DNA from: an uncultured Planctomycetia bacterium
GTDB lineage: Bacteria > Omnitrophota > Gorgyraeia > 2-02-FULL-51-18
NCBI GenBank assembly: GCA_964606485.1
Contig: CAZSGP010000001.1
Coordinates: forward strand, 481,085 to 545,084
Length of the DNA: 64,000 nt
Reading direction: 5' to 3'
Position 1 is the stretch's first letter; the number at the start of each line of letters is the position of its first letter. The translations under genes and the position numbers were made by a program. Shown piece after piece: positions 18,068-64,000 of the stretch. The notes beneath the pieces were generated by a model. It was not told the DNA's origin and ran no database searches. It was given only the letters and a program-made list of their open reading frames with translations.

Positions 18068-18384
18068 AAGAGCTCTGGATGTATCTGGACCATCTATCGA
18101 AGGCGGGTCGGCAATTCATCACGGTCGATATATATAGGAGAGACCTGGGTCTTTTGGCCGACTTTTTATTTCGGGCGAAGAATAAAAACCTTGTCAGTGC
18201 CAGCACCGAAGACATCGAACCTTTTATGTATGAAACAAGTCAGCGTCTTTGCCAGTGGTGCTACTACAACCGGTATAACCGGATTTGGAACCTTTACAAC
18301 TTTTTTAAGACCGAAGGGCTCATTGGTGAAAATCCAATGGATGCAATCCCTCGGCCCAAAGCGCCAAGACGGGTTCGCCGATGA
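18064..18384 (+). pseudogene. Truncated tyrosine recombinase carrying only the N-terminal SAM-like core-binding domain (106 aa), middle member of the trio
   Basis: ATGA overlaps at both junctions (18064 and 18381). The sequence resembles the Xer N-terminal domain and no catalytic domain follows before the next full recombinase. Confidence 0.5.
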
Positions 18385-34700: not shown

Positions 34701-37700
34701 AGCGGCAGGCCGACCTATTTTTTAAATGCGTATGGAGCGAGTTTTCAGTTTCAAGAAAGTGGTCTACAATTATCTATCAATCAGTTTAGTTTTCTTCAGA
34801 GTCAGCCAGATAACCGCACTACAATTTTTACCTTACCCCAAATTGACCATGCCGTGCCATTTTTTGGAACCGGAGTTGATGGAGATGCCAGAGTTACAGC
34901 AGCTACCTATCTAACTAGAGATATGAATTATAACTCTCTGACTATTGATTCAGGCGCAATTTTATATCCAAATGGACATAAAATTTTTGTGAATGGCGAT
35001 TTAATTAATAATGGGTCAATTTCCGTGGATGGGCAAGGTGGGCAGGGCGGCGGTGGTGGAGCGCCTCGACCCACTGGTTCGCCGTCAGGCGGTCAAAGCG
35101 GCCAATCTCAAACGGACTCATTTGGAGGGATTGGTGGAAATGGGGGAGCTGGCGGAGATACGCGATACACTTCGCCGCGTGGCGCAAGCTCATTTTATCC
35201 GGGATACCCTGGTGGTTCCGGCGGCGCGATCAGCGGATTTGCCAGCACCACTTTACCCACAGATATTTTGGCGGGAAATCCTGTAAATATATCGGCAGGT
35301 GCTGGCGGCGGTGGCGGAGGCTCATCGGCCATGGTTTACGGAGGAAGTGGGGGTCCCGGGGGAGGTGCTCTGTTTATTTTCGCTAAAAATATAAAAAATG
35401 AAAATGGGACAATTTCAGCCAATGGGCAAAATGGGGTGGATGGTGGTTGGGGACCTGGTATTGGAGACGGAGGTTCTGGCGGTGGCGGCGGTGGCGGCGG
35501 GGGGACAATTTATCTTGTGTATCAAGCCATTGAAAATGGAAATATTCAAACTAATCCGGGCTTAGGTGGTTCTGGTGGCGGCGGTTCTAGTCAAGGTGGA
35601 GCTGGAGCCAGCGGTCTTCCAGGTTCGGTGGTGAAATTTAGCCCTTTAAATTTAAATATTTCATTTGATAGCTCAGAACTTCGATTGCCATATTTTGACA
35701 AAATGAATTTTGACAAGGGTTTTAGTGACGCAACTAATCAGATTTACACCGGAACATATGCCTTTGGCCAAATTTCTCAGATTCAGGGTATTTATAATTC
35801 CCAGGGCGTAAATATTGATGTTCAAAAAAATCTCATTCATCAAATCACCGAATCTTCTGGCCAAAGAAAAGACTACAGCTATCAAAGAGACATAAACGGC
35901 GCTCTCACCGGAATCACCGTCACTCAAAATAATACCCAGATGCATTATTCGCCAGATGGCGTGTTGAATGGGGTTCGGTTTTTGTCGATGCCTAACACCA
36001 TTGATCAGGCTAAAGATTTTGTAGATGCAAGCTCTGGAAATTTTACAATCGCTTCAACCGGAAATGTTGCCTTAGATGTCGACCAGCAAGGTTTCTTTGG
36101 AAATGCCTCAGCGCTCTTCGATGGAGCTTCGAGCTATCTTTCCGTAAATCCAAATCCCGCTTTTAATTTTGGAACGGGCGACTTTACGATGGAGACGCGT
36201 TTGTTTTTACAAAGTCTCCCCGCCAATAATTCCGAAGCAGTTATTTTTGATAATGGGGGAGTCCAAGGTGTAAGACTGGGAATCTCGAACACGAATGGGC
36301 TCTATCAAATCCATTTAGTCATTGCCAATACAAACTACAGTCTCAATTTTGTGCCACAGGCAAACTCCTGGCAGCATTTGGCGCTTGTCCGCAATAGCGG
36401 AGTGATTAAAATTTTTGTGGATGGCTACCAGGTGGGTTCAGATATTCAAAATGCTTCCAACATCTCAAATCTCTCTCAAGGTTTGCGCATCGGAAATTCT
36501 TTTTCCGGCAACCAATTCTTTAAAGGAAGTCTTGATGAATTAAGAATTTCAAAAGGAGTGGTGCGCTACGCTCAAAACTTTACAAGTAATACGGAGAGCC
36601 ACCGCTCAGATTCTTTTACCAGTCTCTTACTTCATTTTGACGGAACGGATTACTCAAACTTTTCAATTCGTAAAGATGGGGCTAATTTTATTTTCGAAGG
36701 AGCTAGCGGACAAACATTTTTGATTCCCGCCTCCGTGGGAATGACAGATTCTGTGACAATCAATCCTTCCTTCATCACACAAAGCCGTGACGCGGTCCAA
36801 AGAGTAAATTTTTCAATCAATCCTTTAGAACAAAACCCGTCTCAACGATTCGGAGACGGGCACGACGGAAGCGCGACGCTTTTATCCAACACCACGCTCA
36901 CTCGTGACATGTACTACGACAACCTCACCATAAATCCGGGAGCCACTTTAAATCCCAACGGGTATAAAATATTTGTAAAAGGAATGCTGACGAATAACGG
37001 CACGATCTCCGTTCAAGGCGGAAATGGTTCTAACGGCCAAGGTGCTTATAAACCTGGTGACGGAGACACAAATCCAGGAAGCGGTGGCGGAGCAGGTCAG
37101 CCCGTAACAACCCAAATAAAATCACTCGGCAGTTCTGTTGCTGGCGGTTCGGGGGGATCGGGTGGTCATGGAGGCGGCGGCGGAGCGGGACAAAACGGAC
37201 AGTCTGTAGCCCAATCTCTCGGAGGTCCCGGCGGCGGAAATGGCGGCTCTGTCCAAAATTATTCGATACAGGCTTTAAATCCTGACGTATTTTCTAACCA
37301 AACAATATTGACCCTTCAAGGCGGAGCTTCCGGTCAAGGCGGCGCAGGGGGCGGCGGCCAAAATTACACAGGATCCGGCGGCGGTGGAGGCGGTGGAGCG
37401 GCAGGCGGCGGAGTAATCGCAATCTACGCTCAACAAATTTTAAATCAAAATGGAATCATCACTGCAAACGGTGGAAACGGCGGAACAGGCGGCGGTGGTC
37501 AAGGTGAAGAATATTATAATGGCCGAGGCGATGGTGGTTCGGGCGGTTCCGGCGGCGGCGGTGGAACGATATTCCTAGTTTACGATCAAATCCAAGATGG
37601 AACAATTACGTCGAGCGGCGGTCAGGGTGGAAATGGTGTGGGTGGCTCTCGTGGTGCCACTGGAGCAAATGGTCAACCGGGCCAGACCGGAACTATTCTT

Positions 37701-40700
37701 CGTTATGATACTGCATCACTTAATCCAATCACGTTAGCTTTAGAGCTTCCGTTTAAAGCAATCAACACAGCACTCTCTCGAGCAAACGAAACGCTTCAAG
37801 GTTGGATGAGTTCTGTGACGCAAGCAAACTTAAGTTCACAGGACGTGGTGTCTCAAGAGTATTCTGCGAGCGGTATTCTTGAAGATCAGGTTCACGCGGA
37901 TGGAACCGTTACGATTTTCGAGAATAATAAGCCGTCCATGGTTCTTGATAAGGAAGGTCTTGTTCTTATCCAGTACACCTACGACAGCGAAGGTCATCCT
38001 ACAAGAGTTTATTTAAAGAACGCTCGTAATGCGTTGCCGGATGAAATCGCCAAAGCGCGTCAAAAAATCGAAGACCAACGCGCCAATGATTTAAGAAATC
38101 TCGCCATTCAAAAAAATCTCTCTTACCAGTCCATTCAGACCCAAGCCGCCGCCCAGCGCGCGCAACTCGAATCTCAACTCTCTCAAGTAGAAGATCAGTT
38201 GAGTCATATTTCAGGCATCGAAGTAAAAGGTAAAGCCCAGAGAGTTCAAAAAGCCAATGCCCTAGAGCAATTGGGAGATGCCGTTAGTCAAATCAACCAA
38301 GCGCTCACCGATCTCTCACTCCAAGAGGGAAGTGCCTACGCCAATCTCGACTCCCAAGTTTTATTTTTGTCTAACAAAATTGAAGCCGACACGCAAACGG
38401 CTATCACGAATCTTCGAATTCAAGAAGATCAACTCAAAATCGAAATTCTAAGACAAGAAGTCTCGCCAATTGTTTACGACAACTACCGTAGAATCCTAGG
38501 CCGCGACCCCTCGTCGAGTGAATACAACTTCTGGATTGGTCAAATTGACTATGCGACGGGTGAGTCGCTCCAAGAAGTAAAAACCCTTCAAGGAATTAAT
38601 CTCACCACCGCTCTCAACGCTCATCTTTTAGCCTTGCCGGAGCTTGCCCAAAGACAAGCGTACGTAAATTCCATTAAACAGTCGGTCACGAGTGAGATTG
38701 ATCAGTACCTTAATCTATCAGCCGAAGATAAACTTTTATTTTTACAATCGCTGGGTCTTTCAGCGTCGGATGCAATCAATCTTACAAATTCTGACGCTCA
38801 AAAAGTTTTGTCATGGCTTAATACCCGAAGCCTTCACTTTGGACAGAGCGCTTTTTTAAGTCTCGAAGCGCTACTCGATCAGAACCACATCGCCTTCCAG
38901 CGTGAAGACATAGCCCGTAAAGCCATTCTGATTGATGTTCTTTGCGGGATTATTTCGCCTCTCGATGACGGAGATCTCGTCATCTCGCTTTTTGCGCTCA
39001 ATAAAGTGGCGGGTCTTTATGGCCTCAGCCTCTCCGGAGCTAATTTAAACTGGAACGATCTCCAGTCGATCTATAATTCCAATCCCTCCTCCAAAATTAT
39101 TGCTCATATTAATTCCGTTCACTACGTCATCATCACAAACGTCACAGAAAATTCCGTGACTTACATCGACCCCTCCATCGGCAAAGATAAAGAAAACGAA
39201 TCTCTTACCGTTACAAAGGAGGGATTCTTAAAGCTCTGGCAGGGGAATGTAACGCTTGAAACACAAACTCTAAATACTCTTCCAAACGCTCAAAGCAAAG
39301 TTTTATCTGCCGAAGCAACGCAAGGTATAAGAGGCGCATTCTGGGGAAGTCTTCTAAACCTTATTGGATTCGTAGTGTGGATTATAAATCCCGAGTTAGG
39401 GTTCCTCCTTAACATGATCCGTCTCGCCGCTCTCGGCGCTTCCATCGCTGAAGGAGATTGGCTCTCGGGCCTTTCATCCATCGTCTCTCTAAACTTCGGA
39501 GATCTCGGGAACGCTTTTGGCACTATATTTAAGGGAGCCTCCACCGGAGTCACCCAAACGATCAGCTCTTTGGGTCAAGCCTTAAACGGAGTCGGGCAGT
39601 TCTTTGGAACCATCTTTCAATCTGTCACCGGCTTCTTTGGAAATATCTCCCAAGGACTCAACAGCTTCCTTCAAGGCTCACTTGGAATCTCCTCAGGCAT
39701 CGGGCAAAGAATTGTCGAGACCGCCGTTGGGGTCGGAATTAACTACGGAGTCTCGAAAGGGCTAACGGCTATCGGAGTGGATGAGCAGGTTTCAGGATTC
39801 TTAGGGTCGCTTACGGCGGGAGCGATTATCGGTGGAATGAAAGATGAGACTATAGCTGGCGGACATGTGGCCGTAACCCATGCGCAAAATATTCAAGCTT
39901 CAGTCCAGCAAGTTCTAACGATCAGTAATGTTGGACAACTGGGCGCAGAACTTCACCTAGATCCAACGCTAACGAGCATCGTCGGCTTATCTCTTGGCGC
40001 GATTCAAGGGCACATCATCACTAATCCCGGAAGTAATCTGGAGTACGCTTTCTCAGAGATAAGGCCGAATCTATATTCGAGTTTAGCGCAGTACGGAGTC
40101 TCAGAACTCGCTCAAAGTTTTGGAGTGGACTCCAATCTTGCGCCCATATTCACACTGCCGGTTGCAAGCGGCCTCAATGCGTTAACAACTGGCCAAGACG
40201 TGATCCAAGCTGTAAACCAAGGTCTCAATCAAGGTATTGTTCGTTACGGCTTAAACTTTGCTGGAAACTCTAACCCAATTTTTGGATCGCTTCTTTCGCC
40301 GGACATTCAAAACTCGATAGAACAATCCGTTGGTCAGCAAGGATTGTTCCAGGGAATATTTAGTATTGTCGGTCGAACCACTCGAGGTCTTCTCCAAGGA
40401 GTGTCCGCAATTGGTCAATCTATCCAAAGTTTTGGATCTCTCGTTCAACAAAGAGGTCTTGCCGGAGCTTTGTCTCAAACAATGAGTTCATTTTTTGGAA
40501 GATCCTCAATCGAACAGATCGTAAATCAGGGTGGAATTGCTCAAAGTCTTCAGAACGCTCCAAGACAACAAGTCACGCTTAATAACGGTCAAACCGCTAC
40601 AGAAGTAGAGCTGTCTCAAGACGCCTCAATCTACTTGGACTCTCAAGGAGATTTGCTGGGAACGAGAGACCAGGATCTTGTGCAAATAGGGGATTTTGGT

Positions 40701-41801
40701 TATGACACTAATGCCGACATCTTTCTATCCGATGGAATGGTTTATTCTGATCTACCAGATCAATATCAGCTCTCCATGCAAGTTGATGGTTACCAGCCCA
40801 TTCATATTGAAGTATCAGATAATCAAAACCAACCCGTTCTTCAAGTAACACCAAAAGATGGTCAGCAGAATATTCAGATTCAATCCCCCACTCAAACATC
40901 ACCCAGCTTTTTAAACTCAATCCTATCTTTGGTGCCAATGGGACTTTCGTTCTTGATGAGTGAGGGGGTGGCTGAGGCGGCGGGCATCTCTGTAAATACA
41001 GCATCTGCAAATCCTATCGGACAACTTATAGATGTTGTTCTTTTGAATGGTGTTCGTCTTACAGAATTCGCTAGAGAAGGAGAGGCTCCGCGCTATTTTC
41101 AATCGGGAAATGCCTTCAGAAACGAACTCAATCGTCTCCACGTTAGCGATAATTCAATAAAAACAATTTCTCTTTTTGAGCAGTTCGGTACGGATTTATA
41201 CCAATGGTTACAGAATCAGAAGCTTGCGCAAGAAGTTACGAATGAATTGGTCCAAATTCGCAATACGCAACTCAACCACCCATTTGTCCCGCTAGCGTAC
41301 AGTGGTGGTGGGCGGCCACTTCTCAATGCTCTTGCAAATGAAACTCATAATGGATTTGGTGTGCAGACGGCGATTTTAGTGGGTTCTCCAATGACCGAAG
41401 CCGAGACCCTGATAGAGTCACCAACCCTAAGTACAATTGTCAATATTTATGGGAGCAATGACCTGTTTCTTGTGGCTACGCCTCAAGATGGAGTACCATC
41501 AATCTCCAAGCATTTTTCCAGCGATGACCATTACGTCCAAACAATCAATATCGAGCTTCAGGGTATTGGGCATACGGATTATTTTTACAGTAGCAATGAA
41601 ACGCCTTCCGCGCTTAAAATGAAGGCCTGTAATTTTATAGCAAGACTTACTCAAGCTGCTCTTGACGAGCAGACACTGGGGGATTTTTTGAATCTATTAG
41701 GTGCGCCTTATTCAGCGGAAACCTTTGACGATGAGCACTATTTAAGCGAGGTCAAAAACTACGTGATTAATTTAAATAACTTGCCTGATCTAAATTTGTA
41801 A
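28731..41801 (+). CDS. Giant secreted multidomain protein (4,356 aa). Parts in order: signal peptide, conserved N-domain, ~15 tandem 44-aa repeats, YD/Rhs-like repeats, two Gly-rich modules, LamG-like domain, coiled coil, DUF4214-like segment, C39-like peptidase domain, glycine-zipper TM region, C-terminal lipase-like alpha/beta-hydrolase.
   Basis: A single uninterrupted ORF. Signal peptide MKTKSVFFKSICWTLILSFSYSQFCYA. LamG pattern FDGASSYLSV...LRIGNSF...FKGSLDELRIS at nt ~36060-36570. C39-like pattern HYVIITNV..YIDPS....LTVTKEGFLKLWQGNV at nt ~38810-39260. Hydrolase triad AYSGGG / GSNDLF / GIGHTDYF at nt ~41290-41585. Confidence 0.8.
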   Translation: MKTKSVFFKSICWTLILSFSYSQFCYALTPRELLDQAKASFGLMGDDHHQGGGSNPVDLQQSQVQAQSAVDQQNNLQDLQNLNFSLTTQNGDTLNYVNNTLSQITRPDGTTLNNISQDAMTGNITGANLRLNDGTIQILQNGNILGSQTPDGTQVFYDLQTGKVQRTVSSSGEETTYTYINSETILESAHFQTAYDANDKIKHILDKQTHKESFFNNGILQRIEEVDHSQYLFGHETTGTDIRVSLEAFIDSIGNRFDFTGDDVSRVTLVDGTELQNTVWNSQDQTLRDFSFTEASGNTRTVLNNQTSQIDLSNNGGSITDITWNPQTHALENYHFTNPAGDDFTVVNGLASQIHLASNQGSISNSILDPSTGLLRDYVFTDPAGNVFTALNNQATQIDLYNHQGEISNITWNPTNHTLEDYVFTDPNGNEFTVAQTQVSQIFLPSGQGRLTNITWNSLDQTLKNYTFTDFDGNVFTVVDNQTTRIVLSGNRGELAGIEWDAVTHSLKNYTHTDSAGNIFTVQNNQTIQIDLANSAGRITNIVWNPQTLALESYHFTNSSGDEFAVNNGQTTEILLANNDGRLTNIIWDSQTYALSNYMLTDLAGNQFTVAQNQTTQIALSNNAGVITNILWDNATHLLKDYVFTDSTGNVSTVQNNQTVQINIPTQGNLTNIVWSSTTQSLADFIFTDLSGNAFTVQNNQTTHIALSNSRGTLTNTGWDSATGVLKDYLFTNPSGDIFTVINDQTSDVLLANNAGRLTNIIFDPQSHLTKDYVLTDSAGNIFTVVNNQATEIDLAHNAGRITGIIWNSQNTIDQALLTDSQNRQIQYQGGVATRITLPSGEVISNITWNSNGTVHEAALADSQNNQYFFRDNVIIKVQDSNGVLFENILWGQDQKIKDASVTFPDGRTTLYQDKKLIRLTDAQGVITNFTYTPDRILASSNGINSEYLLDGTLVKTTDAQGNQTLYFAQGPQKGLKEKDVTVAGDTFIYEYSQNNTLIQRRQVLRSEQTVTTIEGQTTLQAKNNPFFGFEASFQNPELDSQEVRLITNGSYPLEIKLKPGQDAAFSFNRGAFQSLGVRIEQGFAYKVEIQISKTGIQIFIYKSTDPRPSNPARTIQRSNWNTRFEIISTNAQVRLDARSAGTYRTDTTTQDRQNAYRSGSPVEQLTFRLTPQNSYSRPSIQLTAEQQNTSRQKRTFYLDYQNNQWRITAFGGGISFQSFAINQTLQSNVDYAAELRFENNQLKFYVYPKGQQRPQSPLATLNALTNASARFNSDFNNAQGQAQVLYNLTSPTLSSARASSLPQNMDLLQNSNLLSQTLPSAPMSLSYQNPGFSFAESQLALQRPDFRMTQVSFAFTEPNIHETEFSPSLAGPTFVFNEPVFSFSRPNLNLTQTNVSSMVNPSISLIQNDLNLITDQTISIVRPLKFDLDNAIGFSSTTYNLHGGLEEVLKADSSRYVFEDGVLSQAFNAQGQATNFSFQESGLSNVVGATISQNQVQSHYSAEGELESVVVGDMTVHYGSNQSIDYLEKSDGTEIHDITFDANGQIQNASVYLPDGRIKFYENGHLVRSQEADHSQLFFVNDQAVQMITAQNLTYDFNYTPGHIEAVLNTANIPIPDALTPVRMQHDSNFNLQQIVRQNNEIINFTNNQVQSVQTPSQSPQTIVQLADGYKVLQDNTETFYDSNNQIQKVLIHTTASNSHELEVSYQYGKIRQIKKDNTLTFTYSYEFTSENKERTVIHDLEENSTKTYENELLLTSFDNDTSVLSNYSYDANKKVSRVVVSRLGRTLHTYNYTYSNDQTLVTDEEGILRTYDSNNKLIFLDKENKRFTYTYHTDATTHEEIIEEKLIRQTLEGGAVVDYDVDGQIQKIQNTDGTFIDHVVLGGQRNIQKATIHLLDGTSKVFSGTQILEEITPQNTHFYFDEGRITRVVGSQGDEFDYIYDQDSGGNVVRVRSDIGQAYLEYDINGDLQGFRPKDSNQFYHLTKTFDASGRPTYFLNAYGASFQFQESGLQLSINQFSFLQSQPDNRTTIFTLPQIDHAVPFFGTGVDGDARVTAATYLTRDMNYNSLTIDSGAILYPNGHKIFVNGDLINNGSISVDGQGGQGGGGGAPRPTGSPSGGQSGQSQTDSFGGIGGNGGAGGDTRYTSPRGASSFYPGYPGGSGGAISGFASTTLPTDILAGNPVNISAGAGGGGGGSSAMVYGGSGGPGGGALFIFAKNIKNENGTISANGQNGVDGGWGPGIGDGGSGGGGGGGGGTIYLVYQAIENGNIQTNPGLGGSGGGGSSQGGAGASGLPGSVVKFSPLNLNISFDSSELRLPYFDKMNFDKGFSDATNQIYTGTYAFGQISQIQGIYNSQGVNIDVQKNLIHQITESSGQRKDYSYQRDINGALTGITVTQNNTQMHYSPDGVLNGVRFLSMPNTIDQAKDFVDASSGNFTIASTGNVALDVDQQGFFGNASALFDGASSYLSVNPNPAFNFGTGDFTMETRLFLQSLPANNSEAVIFDNGGVQGVRLGISNTNGLYQIHLVIANTNYSLNFVPQANSWQHLALVRNSGVIKIFVDGYQVGSDIQNASNISNLSQGLRIGNSFSGNQFFKGSLDELRISKGVVRYAQNFTSNTESHRSDSFTSLLLHFDGTDYSNFSIRKDGANFIFEGASGQTFLIPASVGMTDSVTINPSFITQSRDAVQRVNFSINPLEQNPSQRFGDGHDGSATLLSNTTLTRDMYYDNLTINPGATLNPNGYKIFVKGMLTNNGTISVQGGNGSNGQGAYKPGDGDTNPGSGGGAGQPVTTQIKSLGSSVAGGSGGSGGHGGGGGAGQNGQSVAQSLGGPGGGNGGSVQNYSIQALNPDVFSNQTILTLQGGASGQGGAGGGGQNYTGSGGGGGGGAAGGGVIAIYAQQILNQNGIITANGGNGGTGGGGQGEEYYNGRGDGGSGGSGGGGGTIFLVYDQIQDGTITSSGGQGGNGVGGSRGATGANGQPGQTGTILRYDTASLNPITLALELPFKAINTALSRANETLQGWMSSVTQANLSSQDVVSQEYSASGILEDQVHADGTVTIFENNKPSMVLDKEGLVLIQYTYDSEGHPTRVYLKNARNALPDEIAKARQKIEDQRANDLRNLAIQKNLSYQSIQTQAAAQRAQLESQLSQVEDQLSHISGIEVKGKAQRVQKANALEQLGDAVSQINQALTDLSLQEGSAYANLDSQVLFLSNKIEADTQTAITNLRIQEDQLKIEILRQEVSPIVYDNYRRILGRDPSSSEYNFWIGQIDYATGESLQEVKTLQGINLTTALNAHLLALPELAQRQAYVNSIKQSVTSEIDQYLNLSAEDKLLFLQSLGLSASDAINLTNSDAQKVLSWLNTRSLHFGQSAFLSLEALLDQNHIAFQREDIARKAILIDVLCGIISPLDDGDLVISLFALNKVAGLYGLSLSGANLNWNDLQSIYNSNPSSKIIAHINSVHYVIITNVTENSVTYIDPSIGKDKENESLTVTKEGFLKLWQGNVTLETQTLNTLPNAQSKVLSAEATQGIRGAFWGSLLNLIGFVVWIINPELGFLLNMIRLAALGASIAEGDWLSGLSSIVSLNFGDLGNAFGTIFKGASTGVTQTISSLGQALNGVGQFFGTIFQSVTGFFGNISQGLNSFLQGSLGISSGIGQRIVETAVGVGINYGVSKGLTAIGVDEQVSGFLGSLTAGAIIGGMKDETIAGGHVAVTHAQNIQASVQQVLTISNVGQLGAELHLDPTLTSIVGLSLGAIQGHIITNPGSNLEYAFSEIRPNLYSSLAQYGVSELAQSFGVDSNLAPIFTLPVASGLNALTTGQDVIQAVNQGLNQGIVRYGLNFAGNSNPIFGSLLSPDIQNSIEQSVGQQGLFQGIFSIVGRTTRGLLQGVSAIGQSIQSFGSLVQQRGLAGALSQTMSSFFGRSSIEQIVNQGGIAQSLQNAPRQQVTLNNGQTATEVELSQDASIYLDSQGDLLGTRDQDLVQIGDFGYDTNADIFLSDGMVYSDLPDQYQLSMQVDGYQPIHIEVSDNQNQPVLQVTPKDGQQNIQIQSPTQTSPSFLNSILSLVPMGLSFLMSEGVAEAAGISVNTASANPIGQLIDVVLLNGVRLTEFAREGEAPRYFQSGNAFRNELNRLHVSDNSIKTISLFEQFGTDLYQWLQNQKLAQEVTNELVQIRNTQLNHPFVPLAYSGGGRPLLNALANETHNGFGVQTAILVGSPMTEAETLIESPTLSTIVNIYGSNDLFLVATPQDGVPSISKHFSSDDHYVQTINIELQGIGHTDYFYSSNETPSALKMKACNFIARLTQAALDEQTLGDFLNLLGAPYSAETFDDEHYLSEVKNYVINLNNLPDLNL
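29521..31530 (+). repeat. In-frame tandem array of ~15 units with a 132-nt (44-aa) period
   Basis: Consensus unit (Y/F)(V/T)FTDxxGNxFTVxNNQTTQIxLxNxxGxITNIxWNxxTxxLxDY repeated from aa ~265 to ~935 of the giant protein. The units have diverged at the nucleotide level. Confidence 0.7.
34912..35640 (+). repeat. Gly-rich low-complexity module 1, preceded by a conserved TRDMNYNSLTIDSGAILYPNGHKIFVNGDLINNGSISV leader
   Basis: Long poly-Gly/Ser/Gln stretches, including a (GGC/GGT)n run near nt 35474-35506. Module 2 begins with a near-identical leader. Confidence 0.6.
36898..37715 (+). repeat. Gly-rich low-complexity module 2, an internal duplicate of module 1 (leader TRDMYYDNLTINPGATLNPNGYKIFVKGMLTNNGTISV)
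   Basis: The leader motif and the following TIFLVYDQIQDGTI segment match TIYLVYQAIENGNI in module 1. A (GGC/GGT)n run lies near nt 37376-37413. Confidence 0.6.
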
Positions 41802-41806: not shown

Positions 41807-42268
41807 ATGAAAAAATTATTAGTAATATTTATCATAACGTTGGTAGCAATCGGTGTCAGTTGGAAGATTTTCTCTCGTTTGAACAAGAATGCGGCGAAAA
41901 AGCCAGTGGAAACAGTTTTTATTGCGCCCAAAGAATATACGGAATCGTTTGAAAAGTCTACCGCATCGGCCAGGTTATTCTATGAAAAGTACCGGCGAGC
42001 GCTAGACCAGCTTAAACATGAAAACTACCAAGAAGCAATTCAGTCTTTTAATGAGTGTGTTCCTGAGGCGGGCATCGGCATTGAAAAAGGAATGGTTTAT
42101 AACAGGCTTGTGCAAATTTACAAAGCGCTTGATGACCCTCAAAACGAGTTGAAGTACACAGAACTTACGATTAAATTTTCAGCCAATACTGTTCTAAACG
42201 AGGAACTTAGTCGCCGTGCCGCTGAACTCCGCCAACTTCTCTCTGCAAAAGAAGCGCAGAAGAAATAA
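41807..42268 (+). CDS. Membrane-anchored helical (TPR-like?) protein (153 aa), positional counterpart of 22528..23280
   Basis: N-terminal TM segment LLVIFIITLVAIGVSW; helical Glu/Lys/Tyr-rich sequence. It starts 6 nt after the giant gene's stop codon. Confidence 0.35.
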   Translation: MKKLLVIFIITLVAIGVSWKIFSRLNKNAAKKPVETVFIAPKEYTESFEKSTASARLFYEKYRRALDQLKHENYQEAIQSFNECVPEAGIGIEKGMVYNRLVQIYKALDDPQNELKYTELTIKFSANTVLNEELSRRAAELRQLLSAKEAQKK

Positions 42269-56821: not shown

Positions 56822-56850
56822 TTGACATTTATAAATTTGCGGAGTAAACT
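56822..56850 (+). promoter_or_regulatory. Possible sigma-70-like promoter for the downstream giant gene (TTGACA -17- TAAACT)
   Basis: -35 TTGACA at 56822-56827, a 17-nt spacer, and a weak -10 TAAACT at 56845-56850. The sequence ends 7 nt before ATG 56858, which would give a near-leaderless transcript. Confidence 0.3.
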
Positions 56851-56857: not shown

Positions 56858-59800
56858 ATGCTGAAAATAAAATCAAATTTTTTCAAATCAATTTGCTGGG
56901 TGTTGGTGTTTGCATTGAGCTGGTCCCAACTTATATATGCCGCTACGCCGCGTGAATTGCTTGAGCAGGCTAAGGCTTCATTTGGTTTGATGGGGGAGAA
57001 TCATATTCAAGGCGGGGGATCGAGCCCCTCAGTTTTAGCCCAGAGCCAGGCCCAAGCGCAGAGCGCAGTTAATCAGCAAAATACTCTTCAGGATCTTCAA
57101 AATTTAAATTTCAATCTGACCACTCAAAACCAAGACACGTTAACTTACGTTAATGGCGAGCTCTCAAGTATTCAAAGGACTGACGGGTCCGCGCTTAACA
57201 ATATTGCGCAAGACGCGCAAGGCAATATCATTGGGGCTAATCTTCAATTGCCGGATTCGACCGTGCAAGTTTTGCAAAATGGAAATATTTTGGGTTCGCA
57301 GACGGCAGATGGCTCACAAGTTCTTTACAGTGCCCAAACCGGCCGCATTGACAAAGTCGAATCGCCCACCGGGGTTGAGACGACCTACTCTTATAAGGAC
57401 GCACAGGGCGTAAATATAACCCTAAATGCCGCGGCGGTTGTCGACGAGACCATTTTAGACAACGCTACCTTTACAACGACATACGATCATCAGAGCCAGT
57501 TGAAAGAAGTTTTTGAAAAAAGTACGGGCAAGCGCACTTTTTATACGAGCGGCATGGTGGACCACATTGTTAACTCTGATGGATCGGTTGTGGAATTTAA
57601 TCGCACAACAATCGGAGACGAAACGCACATCACCCCAAGATCGGTCGATGTTTATACGGACACCAATGGAAATATTTTCCACTTCAATCAAGGACAAGTT
57701 GAGCGCGTAGATCTTACGGATGGATCTCAAATTTTGAATCCCACTTTTGACGAGCAGGGCCGTTTTCAGGGAGGGGCACTTGTGGACGCCGCGGGCTACC
57801 AAGCCGTCTTGAGTCAGGGGGGCTATAGTCAAATTAATTATTCGGATGGGGCGACTCTTTCCCAGCTAAATTTTATAGCCGGTCAGTTGGACTCGGCAAC
57901 CTTAACGGTGCCATCAGCCTATGTCGCACAAATTCATCAAAATAATTATTCGAACTTGAGATTTAGTGATGGAACCGTTGTTGAAAATATTAGCTTTGAT
58001 GCGCTGGGGCATTTTCAAAGCGGAAGGGTGATCGACTTAAACGGCGTGATATGGACAATCGATCAGGGAAATATTGTACGAGTAGAGCTCGCCAACGCCG
58101 AGGGGGTTCTGACAAATATTGTTTGGAATGCAAATCAAGAAATCAAAGACGCACTCCTTACAAAAAATAATACCCAATATTTTTTTACGGATAAAAAACT
58201 AATGCATTCAATCGACGCCCAGGGGAATAAGACGATTTACAACTATTCAACTGCTTCGGGCGGAGTCTTACAAATTGAGTCGATGCAGATTTTACCCTCA
58301 GCTCAGAACGTGACGACGTTTCGAGCGACCTCCATGCCCAGCCGACTCGCTTTAAGCAAAACAAGTTTTTCTTTCTCTGGAAACGACTCCACCGGTGACC
58401 AAATTAGCTTTACCAGTAACTATTCCAGTAACCGGCAATTTATTTTAAATCTCGTCCCGGGCAGCGGTTCTTTTTTCAATTACAAAAACACGACTTACCG
58501 AAATAACGTCAATAATGGAAAAAATGTTTCTCTTGGCATTAATCTTTTAAGAGGCGTCACTTACAACGCGGAGCTATGCTGGGGAACTCAGATCATTCAA
58601 GGCAAGTCCCAATCAGGGATTCAAATTTGGATTTGGGACGCGTCTACGACGAGGCCGACGGCGCCGACTGCTTTTATCAAGGATAACGGACTCTTTTATT
58701 TGAACGCGTTAGACATTAAAGCGGTTAACGCGCAGATTTTAGTCGACCCACAGTCCAGCGGGCGATATTCTCAGAGAGATTACTCACTCCAACACCCAGC
58801 TACTTTAAACCCCGCCCAAAGCGTTGATTTTCATTTTAATTCTCAAAGTTCAACCAATAACCGCATCTCATTTACGGCTCAGAGCGGACGAACGCAAAAT
58901 AGTGCCGGGCACTCGGTGAGCTCGAGTGTAGAGGTTGATTATCAATACGGACGCTGGAATATTGTCACCACAAACTACGACTACACAACGCATCGAAATG
59001 TAACTCTGTCGTCTCAAAGAAATATTAGGATTAACCAAACATTAACAGCTGGAAAAAATTACACGTTTTTCACCGAAGTCAAAAATAATAAGCTCTTAAT
59101 TTATATTTATGATTCTTCTTTAGCGCGGCCAGTTACGCCCTTGGCAGTAGTAGATGTTATTTCGACGCAAATGGCTTTTTCTACATCCATTCGAAACGCC
59201 GCCGCCGCTGGGCAACTTTTTTCGAACGCGCAGGATGTGAATCTTTCCGGTTCCGGAGCCTCAAGCTTCGCGCGGCTGCCCGTGATTTCTAAAATCGGAC
59301 CCATAGTTTTCGACAAAAAAGATACCCGCATCACCCCAAAAACATTTTCATTCATAAAACCACAGTCGGCGCTCCTCATTGATCCATTCACGAGTTTCAG
59401 AGAGCTGGTTTATGACGCAAACCACAAGCTTAAAAGCGTTTTAAAAACGGATGGCACTTTGCTGAGCTTCGAAAACGGATTGCTAAAGACAGCCGTTGAT
59501 TCCTCTGGAAATGCTGCGGCTTACAATTTTGAAACAGACCCAACGCTCGGAAGTTTGAAAGCCAGTTCGCTTGTCCGAGGCGGGTTAACGAGCACCTTCG
59601 ACGCCGAAGGTAAGCTTTCTACCATCGAAAACGGGGATAACACGCTTCATTACCAAAATGGCCAACTTGATTTTGTGGTGAACAAAGACGGCTCGCGCTT
59701 TGAGAATATTTCACTCGCGGCAGATGGAAGTATGAATAACGCTACGATGATTTCTGCTTCGGGTGATCGTCTCACATTTGAAAATAAAATGCTCACACGC

Positions 59801-62800
59801 CAAACAAGAGCAGATGGCAGCGCTACCGTGTTTAATAACGGAAAAGCCGTGGAGAGCACCAATTCTGATGGTCGAGTTTACCGGTATGAGGTTGACCCGC
59901 AGGATGCTACGAAGAGGGTCGGACATCTCTCTAAGTTTACTGACGAGCACGGCCGAAAAGTAGAATTTTTAAATGATGTTCCATCACGAATCACGCTGAC
60001 CGATGGGACGGTGCTCACGGGACTGGTTTTTGCTGAGAACGGTGATTTAAAAGATGCGGCGGTCTCACTTCATTTGGGCGGGGAAGTGCTGGATGCATTC
60101 TACCGTGATGGGCAGTTGACTGAAGCCTATTTTGCTGACGGACGCAAAGTGGTCTTTGCGAATGGCCGCTTAAAAGAAATCCTATTTTCCACGGACACTT
60201 GGAAATACACCTATCAGGTGGACGCTTCTGGAAATCTCACCGGCTATTCCATTCAAGATAAAGACCAAACGCGCACTTTTAACGCGCAAAACGTTCTTTT
60301 GAAATACGAGAGCGGCGCGGTGACGGCGTTTTATGAAAATGGCGTCTTGAAAAAAATCGTTTCTGGTGACACGACGATTGAAAACTTTGAGCTGGATGCG
60401 CAAGGGCATTTCACCAAAGCTAAACTCACAGACCCAAGCGGAAATATTTTTCAGGTCGAAAACTCCGCACTCCAAACACTCACGCGGCCAAGCGGAACCA
60501 TTCTCTCTTACTCCGGGGATCTTCTCTCAAAAGTCGAAACGCCGCTGGGTAAGACCGTGGATTATCACTACACGCTGGATGCGACTAACAAAGTTTCGGA
60601 TATTTCTGTGACTGTCACGCAAAACGGGCATGCGGCAACGATGCCATTTTATGAATATTTACTAAACTCACAGAACACCGAAGAAAAGCCCCTCGTTGAA
60701 GCACCTTTTAACTTAAGAACCAGCTCGAACGCCTTCGTTGGGCTTGCGACCGAACAGACAACGACATTTATCCCGGCCATTCAAGACCCTCAAGATCCAC
60801 AGGTTCTTTTTCGCTGGGATCCGCAGGGTTTAGCAGACACGACCAATCGCACGGGCGTTCTTTTTGACGTGTCCGATCAATCCCAATCCGCATTTTCAGA
60901 CCGGTTTCAAAACGTTTCCGACGAAGGATTTTTATTTTTGCGCGTGAAAGGCGAAAACGCTTCACCTCTAGCCATCACGCCCGAATGGGATATGGAGCAA
61001 GAGGCTCTCAATCAACCTGTGAGCGCCGGAACCGTTTTAAATCTTCAGAATCAGTACCAGGATTTTGTTTTGGCCACGCATGCTGCTGCGGGCTCAAATA
61101 ATTTGGCGCGGAATGTGTTTTTAAAATTTCAAAACCCTCTTCCGAGCACGGCAGCCTGGAGTGTTTCGCTGTCGCAAGCGTTGTGTTACCGCTTTGAGAG
61201 ACTCGACGCCACACTTTATTCGCGCTACTTGCTTACCGGTGCTGATGTTTTGAAATTAAACCAAATGGCGTCTCAAGATAAGTATGAAAATCTTTTAGAC
61301 TCCAAATCATTTGTCACGCCTTTCAATTATAAGGCCGCGCTTAAAGATACGGCTTTCAAGCTGGAATACGACAGTGCGTTTACGCTAAAAAAATCAAGCC
61401 GCATCGACGGCACAACCGTACTCTATCAAAACGGAAATGCCTCTCAGACAATTTCAGCGAGCGGATCGCGCGTTAATTACGTTTACCAGAACGGGCAAGT
61501 GTCTCAAGTGATTACACTGGATGATTTGACCGGTAATCCGAACTTAGTGACGGACTATCAGTACGGAAAAATCAGGAGCGTTAAAAAAGCAGACGGCACA
61601 CTTCTTTACAGTTACACCTACGAGTTTGAAGCCCAGCAAAACGAAACCACGGTGGTTTTGGATCACACCTCTAACCAAACCAAACGCTTTAAAAATGGAC
61701 AACTCTTTTCGAGTCAAAACGCTGACGGGCTCGTGACTTTTTATTTTTATGATGGCCAGGGGCGCCTTGCGCGTTCCGAAGTGCGTCAGGAAAATACGTT
61801 GATTCAAACCTACCGGTATTCTTACGAAGGACTGAACACACTCATCACTGACGACAGCGGCGCGACGCGCATTTATGATGAGCATCAAAACCTTATTTTT
61901 ATCGAAACGTTTGAAGGACTGCGTTACAAACTGAGTCACCTGACCGATGAGCAGGGAAATGAGATTGAACAGCAAACGCTTTACTCGGCACGCGCGGCTG
62001 ACGGAATTATTCTTTTCTACAAAGACGACACCGTTGAAAAAGTTCAGCTTCAGGATGGCACGATCATTAATATTTCTGATCAAGACCCCAATCTTTACTC
62101 CAGAGTTCTTTTGGAGCAGGGACTTGTTTCTGAAATTACCCGCACCACCGGTGAAGTTGCAAAATATGTGCGCGACAACCGCGGCCGGCTTCAGTATGTG
62201 GATGTGAAAGCGGGAACCCAAACCCGCCGTTACAATCCCGATGGCCGTCTTTTGCAGGTAGCGGAGGCGGATGGAACGAGTTTTGAATACGGCTATTTGT
62301 TTGACGCCAATGGCCATGTGAGTAAAACGCGTGTGATTAAGCGCGTACCAAAACTCATTGGCGGAGCTGTGGCGCCAGTTTTATCTGGAAAATTGGAGCC
62401 TATGAGTTTCCGAGCGGACTCCGGCGGGCTTTATGACGGATGGAATGCGTCCATCATTGGCGACGGAACGGGTGTCGGGGAATTTAATTTTAATTATTGG
62501 CGCCAGAGTTATGAAGCCTGGCAGGGCCGTGGGATTGATATGGCGCTGTTTGATTCGACTGGGCATCTTTTATCGCATGACTTGTTCGATCTCTACGAAA
62601 AAGGTGGTGCTGAGTCTGACCGTCTGGCTCAAATCCTGGAACAAGCGCCGGCTAATGCCATTTTACTTTTAGCAGTAGGGGATGACGGCTACACCAATCT
62701 TACCGACCGAGCGAAAACGGCCATCGAATCCTTCGGCTCGCAAGACATTCGCAGCTTAGGTTTTCGCGACTCGTATGCGCTTATCGGCAGAAAAGGGGCT

Positions 62801-64000
62801 GCTATCGGTACGGCGATTGAAGAGCATAAAGCCTCAGGGCAAGGCTATGTGAATATTCAGTCGTACGACACGGACTACTATTATTATGACGCGCAAAATA
62901 ATCCGATTCAGTTCAATCAGTTCCTAACTCTTCCCACCACGCAGTGGCAGAGTTCGCGCACGACCTACGTAGGAGACGATGCCGAAGTATTTGCGACAGA
63001 AGGCATCGGAGCCTCAGGGTTCATTAAAAACTACAACGCGTATTATCCCAATTCCGGTTTTATTCAGCTCTGGAACCAGCAGAATCAAGATTTTTCAGAT
63101 GATGCGCACGTCGCTCAACTTTTAGGACTTGTGGGAAGTAAGCAGGAAAAGTATGTTTTTTATGACTCGCGTTACGCCTCGAACTTTGCGCCGAGCTATT
63201 ACTCGATCAATATAAAAAATAAGCTCGTTGCGCAGGGCTTTCAGGTTGTGAACGCGGATGAGCTTCGATCCGTCATCACAAGCCGCGGCGCGGATACAGT
63301 GATCGTCATGGCGCAGGACATCGCCCCCGACACCATTTACAACCCACTTTCGCCATTTTCGATTTCGCAGATGAATCTGCCGCGTGATTTTATGGAGCGA
63401 GGCGGCACTATGGTCTGGACGCATGACGCGCCTTTCTTTTATGTGAGCCACGCGGATGGAACCAAAGACATTGTAGGAGAGATTGGTATTAAAAAGATGT
63501 TGGGACTCACACCGCGCTACCGCAGTGCGGCGGGGGAAGTGCTGGGAGGCCAAACGCAGGCTCCGAGTTTTGCCTTGCCTCAAAACCCACTTGTTTTAGA
63601 TGCGAACATCCTTAATTTTGAAGTAAACGTAAATTTTCGCACCATTCGCTGGGACAAAATTCGCGACGAGATCGGTTTTACGCTCTCAAGCGACAGTGCT
63701 GTGGTTTCAAGTTACGATACCGACGGAGACTTGGTTCAGCTCGTGAAAGCCGATCGCACCGTGTCGGTGTACGACAAAGAAAAGCTTCTTTTTATCACCG
63801 ACATCAACGGTTACATGCTCTCTGAAAATGTTTACGACGCTCAAGGCAATCTCATTCAAATTATCAATCACGGCGCGCGTCGCGATTTTGAAAATTCTCT
63901 GCTTGATGCCAAAGACAAGGCAGAGCATGACAAGTACATCACGCTAGCTGACTTTGCGATCAATCAAAACCTCGTCACACAGAGCTTTTTAGACAATGTG
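56858..64000 (+). CDS. 3'-partial CDS: second giant secreted protein of the same family (at least 2,381 codons in the window), with YD/Rhs-like repeats
   Basis: ATG at 56858. Signal peptide MLKIKSNFFKSICWVLVFALSWSQLIYA. The first ~120 aa are co-linear with the N-terminus of the 28731 gene (TPRELLEQAKASFGLMGENH..QQNTLQDLQNLNF..TTQN). The frame appears open to nt 64000. Every complete + strand ORF listed in this interval is in a different frame from the 56858 frame, which is consistent with this reading. YD-like units such as DYQYGKIRSVKKADGTLLYSYTYEF and FYFYDGQGRLARSE are present. Confidence 0.7.
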   Translation, partial: MLKIKSNFFKSICWVLVFALSWSQLIYAATPRELLEQAKASFGLMGENHIQGGGSSPSVLAQSQAQAQSAVNQQNTLQDLQNLNFNLTTQNQDTLTYVNGELSSIQRTDGSALNNIAQDAQGNIIGANLQLPDSTVQVLQNGNILGSQTADGSQVLYSAQTGRIDKVESPTGVETTYSYKDAQGVNITLNAAAVVDETILDNATFTTTYDHQSQLKEVFEKSTGKRTFYTSGMVDHIVNSDGSVVEFNRTTIGDETHITPRSVDVYTDTNGNIFHFNQGQVERVDLTDGSQILNPTFDEQGRFQGGALVDAAGYQAVLSQGGYSQINYSDGATLSQLNFIAGQLDSATLTVPSAYVAQIHQNNYSNLRFSDGTVVENISFDALGHFQSGRVIDLNGVIWTIDQGNIVRVELANAEGVLTNIVWNANQEIKDALLTKNNTQYFFTDKKLMHSIDAQGNKTIYNYSTASGGVLQIESMQILPSAQNVTTFRATSMPSRLALSKTSFSFSGNDSTGDQISFTSNYSSNRQFILNLVPGSGSFFNYKNTTYRNNVNNGKNVSLGINLLRGVTYNAELCWGTQIIQGKSQSGIQIWIWDASTTRPTAPTAFIKDNGLFYLNALDIKAVNAQILVDPQSSGRYSQRDYSLQHPATLNPAQSVDFHFNSQSSTNNRISFTAQSGRTQNSAGHSVSSSVEVDYQYGRWNIVTTNYDYTTHRNVTLSSQRNIRINQTLTAGKNYTFFTEVKNNKLLIYIYDSSLARPVTPLAVVDVISTQMAFSTSIRNAAAAGQLFSNAQDVNLSGSGASSFARLPVISKIGPIVFDKKDTRITPKTFSFIKPQSALLIDPFTSFRELVYDANHKLKSVLKTDGTLLSFENGLLKTAVDSSGNAAAYNFETDPTLGSLKASSLVRGGLTSTFDAEGKLSTIENGDNTLHYQNGQLDFVVNKDGSRFENISLAADGSMNNATMISASGDRLTFENKMLTRQTRADGSATVFNNGKAVESTNSDGRVYRYEVDPQDATKRVGHLSKFTDEHGRKVEFLNDVPSRITLTDGTVLTGLVFAENGDLKDAAVSLHLGGEVLDAFYRDGQLTEAYFADGRKVVFANGRLKEILFSTDTWKYTYQVDASGNLTGYSIQDKDQTRTFNAQNVLLKYESGAVTAFYENGVLKKIVSGDTTIENFELDAQGHFTKAKLTDPSGNIFQVENSALQTLTRPSGTILSYSGDLLSKVETPLGKTVDYHYTLDATNKVSDISVTVTQNGHAATMPFYEYLLNSQNTEEKPLVEAPFNLRTSSNAFVGLATEQTTTFIPAIQDPQDPQVLFRWDPQGLADTTNRTGVLFDVSDQSQSAFSDRFQNVSDEGFLFLRVKGENASPLAITPEWDMEQEALNQPVSAGTVLNLQNQYQDFVLATHAAAGSNNLARNVFLKFQNPLPSTAAWSVSLSQALCYRFERLDATLYSRYLLTGADVLKLNQMASQDKYENLLDSKSFVTPFNYKAALKDTAFKLEYDSAFTLKKSSRIDGTTVLYQNGNASQTISASGSRVNYVYQNGQVSQVITLDDLTGNPNLVTDYQYGKIRSVKKADGTLLYSYTYEFEAQQNETTVVLDHTSNQTKRFKNGQLFSSQNADGLVTFYFYDGQGRLARSEVRQENTLIQTYRYSYEGLNTLITDDSGATRIYDEHQNLIFIETFEGLRYKLSHLTDEQGNEIEQQTLYSARAADGIILFYKDDTVEKVQLQDGTIINISDQDPNLYSRVLLEQGLVSEITRTTGEVAKYVRDNRGRLQYVDVKAGTQTRRYNPDGRLLQVAEADGTSFEYGYLFDANGHVSKTRVIKRVPKLIGGAVAPVLSGKLEPMSFRADSGGLYDGWNASIIGDGTGVGEFNFNYWRQSYEAWQGRGIDMALFDSTGHLLSHDLFDLYEKGGAESDRLAQILEQAPANAILLLAVGDDGYTNLTDRAKTAIESFGSQDIRSLGFRDSYALIGRKGAAIGTAIEEHKASGQGYVNIQSYDTDYYYYDAQNNPIQFNQFLTLPTTQWQSSRTTYVGDDAEVFATEGIGASGFIKNYNAYYPNSGFIQLWNQQNQDFSDDAHVAQLLGLVGSKQEKYVFYDSRYASNFAPSYYSINIKNKLVAQGFQVVNADELRSVITSRGADTVIVMAQDIAPDTIYNPLSPFSISQMNLPRDFMERGGTMVWTHDAPFFYVSHADGTKDIVGEIGIKKMLGLTPRYRSAAGEVLGGQTQAPSFALPQNPLVLDANILNFEVNVNFRTIRWDKIRDEIGFTLSSDSAVVSSYDTDGDLVQLVKADRTVSVYDKEKLLFITDINGYMLSENVYDAQGNLIQIINHGARRDFENSLLDAKDKAEHDKYITLADFAINQNLVTQSFLDNV

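Follow-up and report, generated by a model that had tools for sequence, protein, structure and literature searches.

A giant gene of an uncultured Omnitrophota bacterium belongs to an undescribed protein family that is probably a polymorphic toxin/immunity-like system

Results

Gene A and its paralogs

The DNA analysed here is a stretch of 64,000 nt, called the window in the following, from an uncultured Planctomycetia bacterium which GTDB places in the Omnitrophota (Gorgyraeia; 2-02-FULL-51-18; GenBank assembly GCA_964606485.1, contig CAZSGP010000001.1, positions 481,085 to 545,084 of the forward strand). Its right end is taken up by gene A, a giant frame that starts at position 56858 and runs off the window, and upstream of it lie the complete gene B (28731-41801) and the fragment C (19326-22535). 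The three are members of a family of giant proteins with a signal-peptide-like N-terminus, a C39-like domain and a variable C-terminal tail followed by a partner gene, and this combination probably represents a polymorphic toxin/immunity-like system.

From the ATG at 56858 to the window end (56858..64000, plus strand), translation of A gives 2,381 codons with no stop, which bears out the initial annotation in its claim of a frame of at least 7.1 kb; with 61 of 64 codons being sense, the chance expectation of such a run is ~e^-110. No complete open reading frame (ORF) is listed at 56858, since the frame leaves the window. Using the histidine kinase and the 121-aa response regulator upstream of A as look-up queries, we reached Logan contig SRR12487046_42328 (loci L070/L072), which equals the window with 0 mismatches over 19,350-21,853 bp. 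On this contig A stays open to at least codon 2,719, adding 338 residues with no stop, and the gene caller's product of 2,772 aa is ended by the contig end. The early downstream frameshifts that would have spoken against a giant gene are therefore absent. Extending the contig, as had been suggested, thus prolonged the frame and brought in a C39-like domain, and the end of the gene still lies beyond it. An exact-DNA search with the window end found no match in viral or metagenome contigs. Along its whole readable length, A is co-linear with the family representative P0001 (3,669 aa); co-linearity also holds with P0076 (4,239 aa), and the total length of A is estimated at 3,600-4,200 codons.

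The N-terminus of A (56858..56941, plus strand; MLKIKSNFFKSICWVLVFALSWSQLIYA) resembles a signal peptide, as judged from hydropathy and motif: a basic n-region is followed by an 18-residue hydrophobic core (hydropathy segment aa 12-30) and an A-x-A-like end, I-Y-A. It contains the motif FS[YW]SQ[IL]x[WY]A, which recurs across the N-termini of the family. At the end of the h-region (A aa 12-28) the pattern reads F-[ST]-[YW]-[ST]-Q-[ILF]-x-[WY]-A, and in distant members F-x-W-[ND]-Q-I-x-[WF]-A. Such conservation is unusual in a Sec signal peptide, and the motif may be a family-specific sorting signal. Directly upstream, a consensus scan marked a promoter-like site, TTGACA-17-TAAACT (56822..56850, plus strand; 10/12 matches), and the best site of A stops 7 nt 5' of the ATG. 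The scan gave 2 such sites, where shuffled sequence would yield 1.3. Judged by consensus matching only, the transcript may lack a leader or have only a very short one.

The start of A (MLKIKSNFFKSICW) matches that of B (MKTKSVFFKSICW), and the co-linearity of the first ~120 residues, attributed earlier to an old duplication, holds on formal alignment: BLASTP aligns 455 aa at 42% identity (E 3e-82), blastn aligns 364 nt at 69%, and the first 119 aligned codons share 71% of the protein and 67% of the DNA sequence. Within these codons the proportion of synonymous differences (pS) is 0.715, i.e. saturated, that of nonsynonymous differences (pN) is 0.22 and dN/dS is ~0.11, which means that the copies separated long ago and that purifying selection acts on both. 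Further co-linear blocks pair A 265-1014 with B 774-1602 and A 1498-1825 with B 1621-1954. B alone carries an array of ~48-aa repeats (TNI[TI]WN...DY.FTD..GN.FTV.NNQ.TQI.L; window 29570-31220, aa ~280-830) and, on either side of a LamG domain, two very Gly-rich beta-helix-like segments (aa ~2030-2300 and 2720-3000); by sequence comparison, the two stalks have drifted apart as modules were gained and lost. An obvious Shine-Dalgarno sequence is missing from both A and B.

Gene B (28731..41801, plus strand) encodes 4,356 aa according to translation, Pfam and hidden Markov model (HMM) matches, and occurs verbatim as P0010 among the cluster representatives of the family; full-length A is not among the 150 family representatives listed. 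The C39-like domain of B is marked by SLHFGQSAF (38829-38855) and a His motif (39117-39143), followed by an IRGA motif (39324-39347), a transmembrane (TM) and Gly-rich region and an α/β-hydrolase tail with its Ser at 41292-41318, Asp at 41448-41468 and His at 41562-41585, all on the plus strand. Fragment C (19326..22535, plus strand) is an intact frame of 1,069 codons which keeps a VRGA motif, the TM/Gly-rich region and the α/β-hydrolase tail. It matches B aa 3466-4160 with 31% identity over 745 aa (E 5e-87, BLASTP with the SEG filter off); default BLASTP with SEG on failed to show this homology. Thus at least three members, two of them full-size and one a fragment, lie inside 45 kb, as the initial annotation had counted, and no further family fragments are present elsewhere in the 64-kb window.

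Homology of C to the family sets in with the His motif of the C39-like domain, at HMM position 141 (~nt 19317), about 40 nt past the stop of a recombinase gene at 19277. Since it starts mid-module just past the recombinase, C is a copy that has lost its 5' part and borders a mobile/defence island. Both C and its partner gene have kept intact ORFs, which means that the loss happened recently or that the cassette continues to be used. At 19275-19330, the second integrase gene and C share a reading frame, with one TAG stop and 16 codons between them.

The truncation of C raises the question whether A itself is a decaying pseudogene or an assembly chimera that is not expressed as one protein. A also runs off both contigs, and the two assemblies may come from the same reads and would then not be independent. 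Set against 2,719 stop-free codons, the low dN/dS against B and end-to-end co-linearity with intact relatives of other genomes, we regard this explanation as extremely improbable.

The stalk of gene A

All modules of A lie on the plus strand. The first (56942..58183), a helix, a Q-rich linker and the first YD-like hairpins, is the part most like B (42% to B aa 1-432) and shares 37-43% identity with P0003, P0004, P0005, P0015 and P0038. Behind it lies a tandem pair of beta-rich domains specific to the family (58244..59257, aa ~470-800; IQIWIWDASTTRP and LLIYIYDSSLARP), delimited in the 9-member alignment A7, each of which ends in I-x-I-[YW]-[IV]-[YW]-D/x...RP..P; the pair has no Pfam match and no relative in a PDB profile search. 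Next come a region of YD-like beta-hairpin repeats with repeated cross-matches to the repeats of B and other members (59345..60577) and a conserved core (61349..62347), which matches every tested member of the family (28% identity to B, 31% each to P0006 and P0007). An ILEI/FAM3-type 'GG' domain (62528..62800, aa 1891-1981; Pfam PF15711, E 3.7e-23) is the only Pfam match of A within the window besides a weak summed RHS_repeat signal. Searched against PDB, the 11-member profile of this region matched the carbohydrate-binding stem domain of POMGnT1 (5ggj, E 1.7e-21), FAM3B/C and cell surface hyaluronidase (8c6i), which suggests that it is a probable glycan-binding module. Downstream of it, and always 3' of ILEI in the subfamily of A, lies a conserved domain (62975..63562; 11-member alignment A6) with no Pfam or PDB match; an AlphaFold2 (AF2) model of the ILEI and the following domain, built from 2 sequences, reached a predicted local distance difference test score (pLDDT) of 47 and was not used for a fold search. 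The last YD-like units and the start of a coiled coil (63596..64000; 36-51% to P0001 aa 2297-2433 and P0076 aa 2733-2876) lead over to the C-terminal cassette.

The initial annotation had described YD/Rhs-like units in A and quoted two peptides, which we located at aa 1566-1590 (nt 61553-61627; DYQYGKIRSVKKADGTLLYSYTYEF) and aa 1628-1642 (nt 61739-61783; FYFYDGQGRLARSEV), i.e. in the block that is conserved across every family member. In a loose sense, divergent YD repeats are indeed present: the summed Pfam RHS_repeat score is 35.9-38.6 bits in A (cut-off 22), 73 bits in P0001 and 67 bits in P0076. The description holds in this loose sense only, as no single stretch of A is significant (the best being aa 1792-1823), the NCBIfam YD-repeat and Rhs-core models have no match in A, B or C, and none of the 12 family proteins searched has the autoproteolysis motif PxxxxDPxG[LW]. 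Of classic YxYDxxGRL units, a family protein has 0-2, and A has one.

These data bear on the possibility that A is a canonical Rhs/YD-shell toxin, in which a closed YD shell would hold a C-terminal toxin freed by the aspartyl autoprotease of the Rhs core. The RHS_repeat scores above the sequence threshold in A, P0001 and P0076, a faint TEN_YD-shell match on P0001, and variable C-termini with downstream partner genes, which resemble Rhs loci, would all fit it. The absence of the Rhs core, for which canonical Rhs identity was rejected, already contradicts this explanation, as do the individually insignificant repeats, and a coiled coil, a C39-like domain and ~500 aa of TM/Gly-rich sequence lie between the repeats and the variable tail; we know of no Rhs protein with this arrangement before its tail. 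A canonical Rhs toxin is therefore very unlikely.

The C39-like domain and the motif behind it

Beyond the window, A continues on contig SRR12487046_42328 with the coiled coil, a YYRSIMGREPS motif (DUF4214-like) and the C39-like domain (aa 2559-2716, family HMM E 3e-52), in which GLHFGESA, ILTDILTG and VHFATIT stand out. Among 163 unique sequences of the family, the nucleophile position of this domain is occupied by Ser in 97% and by Cys in 3%, the His is invariant (100%) and the third position of the triad is Asp/Glu in 99%; the strict Cys-His-Asp triad of peptidase C39 is therefore not present in most of them. Family members match Pfam PF03412 (Peptidase_C39), and the family profile aligns to the half of the PCAT1 peptidase domain that contains His99 and Asp115 (PDB 7n87, 4ry2). 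The alternation of Ser and Cys next to an invariant His is the pattern expected of a catalytic nucleophile, which argues for, and does not prove, an active enzyme. An ABC transporter domain is absent from A, B, P0001-P0004 and P0076 according to Pfam, and the match to the NCBIfam peptidase-ABC model covers the peptidase part only. A substrate of a type I secretion system (T1SS) or of RTX type, with an inactive C39-like domain, was considered and rejected, given the missing ABC transporter and the Ser/Cys alternation.

Directly 3' of the C39-like domain, every member carries the motif [LI](-12)[ST](-11)xx[EQ](-8)[AT]xx[IV](-4)[RK]G(-2)[AS](-1), followed by hydrophobic residues. Conservation in the 163 sequences is 100% for G(-2), 99% for [AS](-1), 100% for [IVL](-4) and 95% for [LI](-12). 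Double-glycine leaders cut by C39 peptidases end in GG, GA or GS and carry Leu(-12), Glu(-8), Leu(-7) and Val/Ile/Leu(-4) (PMC6363468), and the family motif fits five of the six positions of this consensus. After the motif, one or two strong hydrophobic or TM helices precede ~450 aa that are Gly/Ser-rich (14.5% Gly, 9% charged residues).

Size and distribution of the family

A word-indexed homologue search with A retrieved only 9 relatives, B not among them; the genome of the window seems to be left out of some collections, in which close relatives are thus under-reported. With a profile of the C39-like module, 886 cluster representatives among 1.84 billion searched were found at E<1e-3, 454 at E<1e-10 and 201 at E<1e-30. 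Most of them have 2-4.6 kaa and carry the module ~1,000-1,200 aa from the C-terminus. For a scan of GTDB species genomes the 8-sequence alignment A1 proved too divergent and alignment A2 was used; in this collection, which leaves out the genome of the window, it detected 67 family loci, with ORFs from 2.8 to >4.5 kaa; in the family as a whole, lengths are 2.8-4.6 kaa and rarely reach 7 kaa. All records that name a phylum are Omnitrophota/Omnitrophica metagenome-assembled or single-amplified genomes, and the rest are ENA bins labelled 'uncultured Planctomycetia' or 'uncultured bacterium'. Several genomes have 2-3 copies, e.g. Omnitrophus fodinae with two copies 15 kb apart.

The closest relative of A is P0076 (39% identity over A 1128-2228 and 51% over A 2233-2372), whose domains are ILEI, RHS_repeat and Peptidase_C39 with an α/β-hydrolase tail, followed by P0001, P0154 and P0133. 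Because A is co-linear with P0001, shares 39-51% identity with P0076 and continues into the C39-like module on an identical contig, it belongs to this unnamed and undescribed family, which is essentially confined to Omnitrophota; on these sequence comparisons we consider its membership secure. The common order of parts is signal peptide, YD-like/glycan-binding stalk, coiled coil, C39-like domain, double-glycine-leader-like motif, TM and Gly-rich region, and variable tail. The locus had been described earlier as encoding a family of giant secreted proteins, and this is correct as far as it goes, with several genes and signal-peptide-like N-termini; it is incomplete in that every member also has the C39-like domain and, wherever the sequence 3' of it can be read, which is not the case in A, TM segments. 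Many representatives (P0011, P0079, P0097, P0108, P0135 and P0153) have ~930-1,150 aa and start at or inside the C39-like module, at varying profile positions; they could be orphan, stand-alone cassettes like C or ORFs cut by contig ends.

Variable tails and partner genes

The last 300-400 aa vary between otherwise similar proteins. In B, homology to P0004, P0011 and P0012 is 43-49% identity from the C39-like domain through the Gly-rich region and stops ~300-390 aa before the end, and tails differ even within the ILEI subfamily to which A belongs. Among 100 complete representatives, 58 end in an α/β-hydrolase tail, while the remaining 42 form at least 28 clusters; the genome loci behave alike. 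The dominant tail, with invariant Ser, Gly and His in the order nucleophile-acid-His, has no Pfam match and no relative in the PDB profile search. In an AF2 model of the tail of B (mean pLDDT 62, core ~75) the Ser sits at a strand-helix elbow, and Foldseek returned only α/β-hydrolases (cutinases, PETases and Bacillus LipA; E ~1e-5, target TM-score <=0.72), so that on this model the dominant tail would have a lipase/cutinase-like α/β-hydrolase fold. Alternative tails matched by Pfam are Ntox10 (E 5e-24), Peptidase_C92 (E 2e-6), RES (E 3e-5), PT-TG at the borderline, Abhydrolase_8/DUF676 and, weakly in one protein, Tle3. The C-terminal effector polymorphism for which a comparison of paralogs had been suggested is therefore real at the level of the family, with a sharp boundary and with Ntox10, RES, C92 and α/β-hydrolase tails. 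For A itself, family frequency and the nearest relative P0076 make an α/β-hydrolase with a tetratricopeptide repeat (TPR) partner the most likely outcome, at somewhat better than an even chance.

In 22 loci with a hydrolase tail, a homologous gene of 136-296 aa begins within a few nt of the stop. The partner of C (22528..23280, plus strand) is a TPR protein with a signal peptide that overlaps the stop of C by 8 nt (Pfam TPR; HMM of the 22-locus partner family, E 5e-81). That of B (41807..42268, plus strand), a small membrane-anchored TPR-like protein, starts 6 nt after the stop of B and was linked to the partner family by the HMM (E 5.7e-9), where plain BLAST had failed. The TPR-type partner occurs in none of 16 loci with other tails, giving a strict co-variation with the hydrolase tail (22:2 versus 0:16 with the partner of B scored as unmatched; Fisher's exact p 2e-9). 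Every partner protein begins with a signal peptide, a lipobox-like sequence or an anchor. In the member with an Ntox10 tail (locus L027), an 85-aa Imm27 protein follows at offset 0 (E 6e-14). Imm27 is given as the primary immunity for Ntox10 in the polymorphic-toxin survey (Zhang et al., 2012), and by sequence the two form a canonical toxin/immunity pair inside the family. Two further loci, that of P0001 (L001, 21015-22049) and L023, have unrelated singleton tails, each followed by a PD40/Tricorn-like beta-propeller protein of ~320-345 aa, which may be a second partner class.

Neighbouring genes

The left part of the window (1-19277) is a mobile/defence island whose left end lies beyond the window. 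By Pfam, it encodes an MmeI-type target-recognition domain, a DISARM-like set of a large helicase, an MZB-domain protein and a phospholipase D (PLD) nuclease, PD-(D/E)XK and GIY-YIG nucleases, a trypsin-like peptidase, a primase-like protein and a PIF1 helicase. Two tandem tyrosine-recombinase genes form its right edge (17012..19277, plus strand; Phage_integrase E 3e-45 and 8e-42); the 64-kb window contains no tRNA gene as a marker of an integration site.

Between B and A (43960-52131) lies a biosynthesis cluster of lipid or polyene type with a ketoreductase, two ketosynthases, an acyl carrier protein (called on L070), two amine-oxidase/phytoene-desaturase-like flavoproteins and an acyltransferase-methyltransferase fusion. 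After this cluster come a seven-transmembrane (7TM)-GAF histidine kinase, two response regulators and an HD-GYP protein. A contig of 2,898 bp from another sample (L071, ENA ERZ4216102) has the same GIY-YIG and two response-regulator genes, followed by genes of 101 aa and 200 aa and not by the 407-aa HD-GYP gene; it may be a strain variant upstream of A.

Discussion

At the level of the family, the sequences agree with the template of a polymorphic toxin system in the secretion signal, the variable and partly catalogued tails and the co-varying downstream gene, and B and C have such partner genes, too; the C39-like domain with its adjacent motif is a candidate for the releasing module. We therefore favour the view, and consider it probable, that the family is a polymorphic toxin/immunity-like system with a putative new releasing module and that A is one of its members. 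The protein would be exported by Sec, and its stalk would bind glycans on a target cell, be it prey or competitor. Subsequently, the C39-like domain would cleave after G-[AS] and free the C-terminal cassette, whose hydrophobic part would insert into a membrane and deliver or present the toxic tail. The tail, in most cases lipase/cutinase-like, would then hydrolyse a lipid or ester, and the producer would be shielded by the exported partner, i.e. the TPR protein for the hydrolase type and Imm27 for Ntox10. A phage tape-measure-like protein was also considered and rejected in view of the signal peptide, the chromosomal context and the partner genes.

What the sequences show is the architecture, the pattern of conservation, the constant/variable boundary, the fold class of the dominant tail, and the toxin and immunity domains with their co-variation. 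The steps of the scheme are inferred from these, and its weakest links are proteolysis by a domain with Ser at the Cys position, the topology, and what the TPR protein does. C39-like domains that have lost the catalytic Cys are known as inactive binders, e.g. in T1SS transporters; the exchange of Cys by Ser could thus mean that there is no proteolysis, and the cleavage-like motif lacks the Leu at -7 of double-glycine leaders. With a cleaved signal peptide and one stop-transfer helix, the tail would be left in the cytoplasm of the producer, which would not be the case for a hairpin. The TPR partners could be chaperones or assembly factors and not immunity proteins, and only one alternative tail comes with a textbook toxin/immunity pair. 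The hydrolase model is moderate (mean pLDDT 62, query TM-score 0.33-0.40), the RES and PT-TG matches are marginal, and the part of A after residue 2,719 is read from relatives with 29-51% identity. Finally, Omnitrophota are thought to be predators or epibionts, which makes prey digestion possible instead of classical toxin delivery.

This last point leads to the alternative that the proteins are non-toxic surface adhesins or anchored exo-enzymes for prey attachment and envelope digestion. The TM segments would then anchor them in the producer, the hydrolase would act on lipids or polymers of the prey envelope and the TPR protein would be a helper in assembly or export. The glycan-binding modules of the family (ILEI/GG, LamG, CBM60 and GH115_C) and the single conserved hydrolase type that makes up most tails agree with such a function, as do published giants of the same phylum, which combine C39-like, TM and carbohydrate-active domains and are linked to predation. 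An adhesin does not account well for the Ntox10-Imm27 pair in one member, the RES and C92 tails, the strict co-variation of the downstream gene with the tail type and the sharp boundary between constant and variable parts. Altogether, we regard it as the less likely explanation by some distance from an even chance, and it is compatible with the toxin reading, since a weapon used in predation can still require self-immunity.

Within the polymorphic-toxin interpretation, the data allow a more specific proposal, which we put forward tentatively and with more doubt than confidence: the C39-like domain could be an active papain-fold peptidase with a Ser nucleophile that cuts its own chain at a built-in site of the double-glycine type. 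The stalk would then be a giant 'leader', the cut would free a cassette of ~1,000 aa for membrane insertion and toxicity, and the secreted TPR protein would represent a new immunity class against a lipase-like effector.

Omnitrophota are abundant, uncultured and ultra-small, and, to our knowledge, it is not known how they attack other cells. If the self-cleavage proposal is true, an undescribed mechanism of toxin release and delivery would be present phylum-wide in these putatively predatory cells. Published work on the phylum centred on proteins of >10-30 kaa, whereas the family described here is smaller, much commoner and present in several copies per genome. It is also readable: the border between constant and variable parts is clear, toxin and immunity domains can be recognised, and the putative self-cleavage site is sharply conserved. 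The family would thus be experimentally tractable in E. coli. For polymorphic toxins in Omnitrophota, only one brief mention turned up, of Lipocone domains in gigantic proteins, and no published description of the 3-4.6-kaa family, the Ser-variant module, the in-cis double-glycine-like site or the TPR partners came up in a literature search that was incomplete.

Among known systems, the Tle phospholipases of the type VI secretion system (T6SS) resemble the dominant tail, for which we predict an α/β-hydrolase with a G-x-S-x-G-type elbow and the order Ser-Asp-His, accompanied by an exported immunity-like partner. Some immunity proteins of Tle5b/PldB are Sel1/TPR-like repeat proteins. In contrast to Tle effectors, the tail has no T6SS context, is fused to a giant carrier with a predicted Sec signal and, in its dominant form, is similar to cutinases and LipA at the level of the fold, with no Pfam or PDB sequence match.

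The giants of >10-30 kaa known from Omnitrophota (Archaeovorins and the Dockerin-type) have C39-like domains, TM segments and carbohydrate-active modules, and the architecture cluster with PF03412 only is the largest among the proteins of >=10 kaa, according to two studies (West-Roberts et al., 2023; 2026 complete-genome survey). The family thus shares with them the phylum, extracellular carbohydrate-binding modules, C39-like domains and C-terminal TM regions. It differs in its size of 3-4.6 kaa, which is under the cut-offs of those studies, in the absence of SecA-DEAD, dockerin and TSP3 domains from the members scanned with Pfam, and in the polymorphic tails and partner genes, which the passages of both studies consulted here do not mention.

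With the C39 peptidases PCAT1, ComA and LahT, the family shares detectable homology over the His/Asp half and a substrate-like motif with L(-12), E/Q(-8), I/V(-4), G(-2) and A/S(-1). Unlike these enzymes it has no ABC transporter and carries Ser at the nucleophile position in 97% of the sequences, and its putative substrate is its own polypeptide, with a 'leader' of 2,500-3,500 aa and a 'cargo' that would be the ~1,000-aa membrane and toxin cassette.

A close parallel is with the polymorphic toxins of the Rhs, CdiA and MafB types (Zhang et al., 2012). As in these systems, an N-terminal trafficking signal, long repeats and a putative processing module precede variable tails that include catalogued Ntox10, RES, C92-type papain-fold and α/β-hydrolase domains, a cognate gene lies directly downstream (Imm27 with Ntox10), and a truncated cassette is found elsewhere in the locus. 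What sets the family apart is the putative processing module, a Ser-for-Cys C39-like domain with a double-glycine-like site in cis: in the sections of that survey drawn on here, the releasing peptidases are HINT, ZU5, PrsW, caspase, MCF1-SHE, PVC-metallopeptidase and OTU-type papain folds, and a C39-like domain is listed as a toxin type only (Tox-PL-C39). Besides, the family has ~500 aa of TM and Gly-rich sequence between peptidase and toxin, its commonest partner is a secreted TPR protein, and its distribution is essentially restricted to Omnitrophota. If our interpretation is true, a Ser-variant C39-like releasing module and possibly a TPR immunity class would be added to the polymorphic-toxin catalogue.

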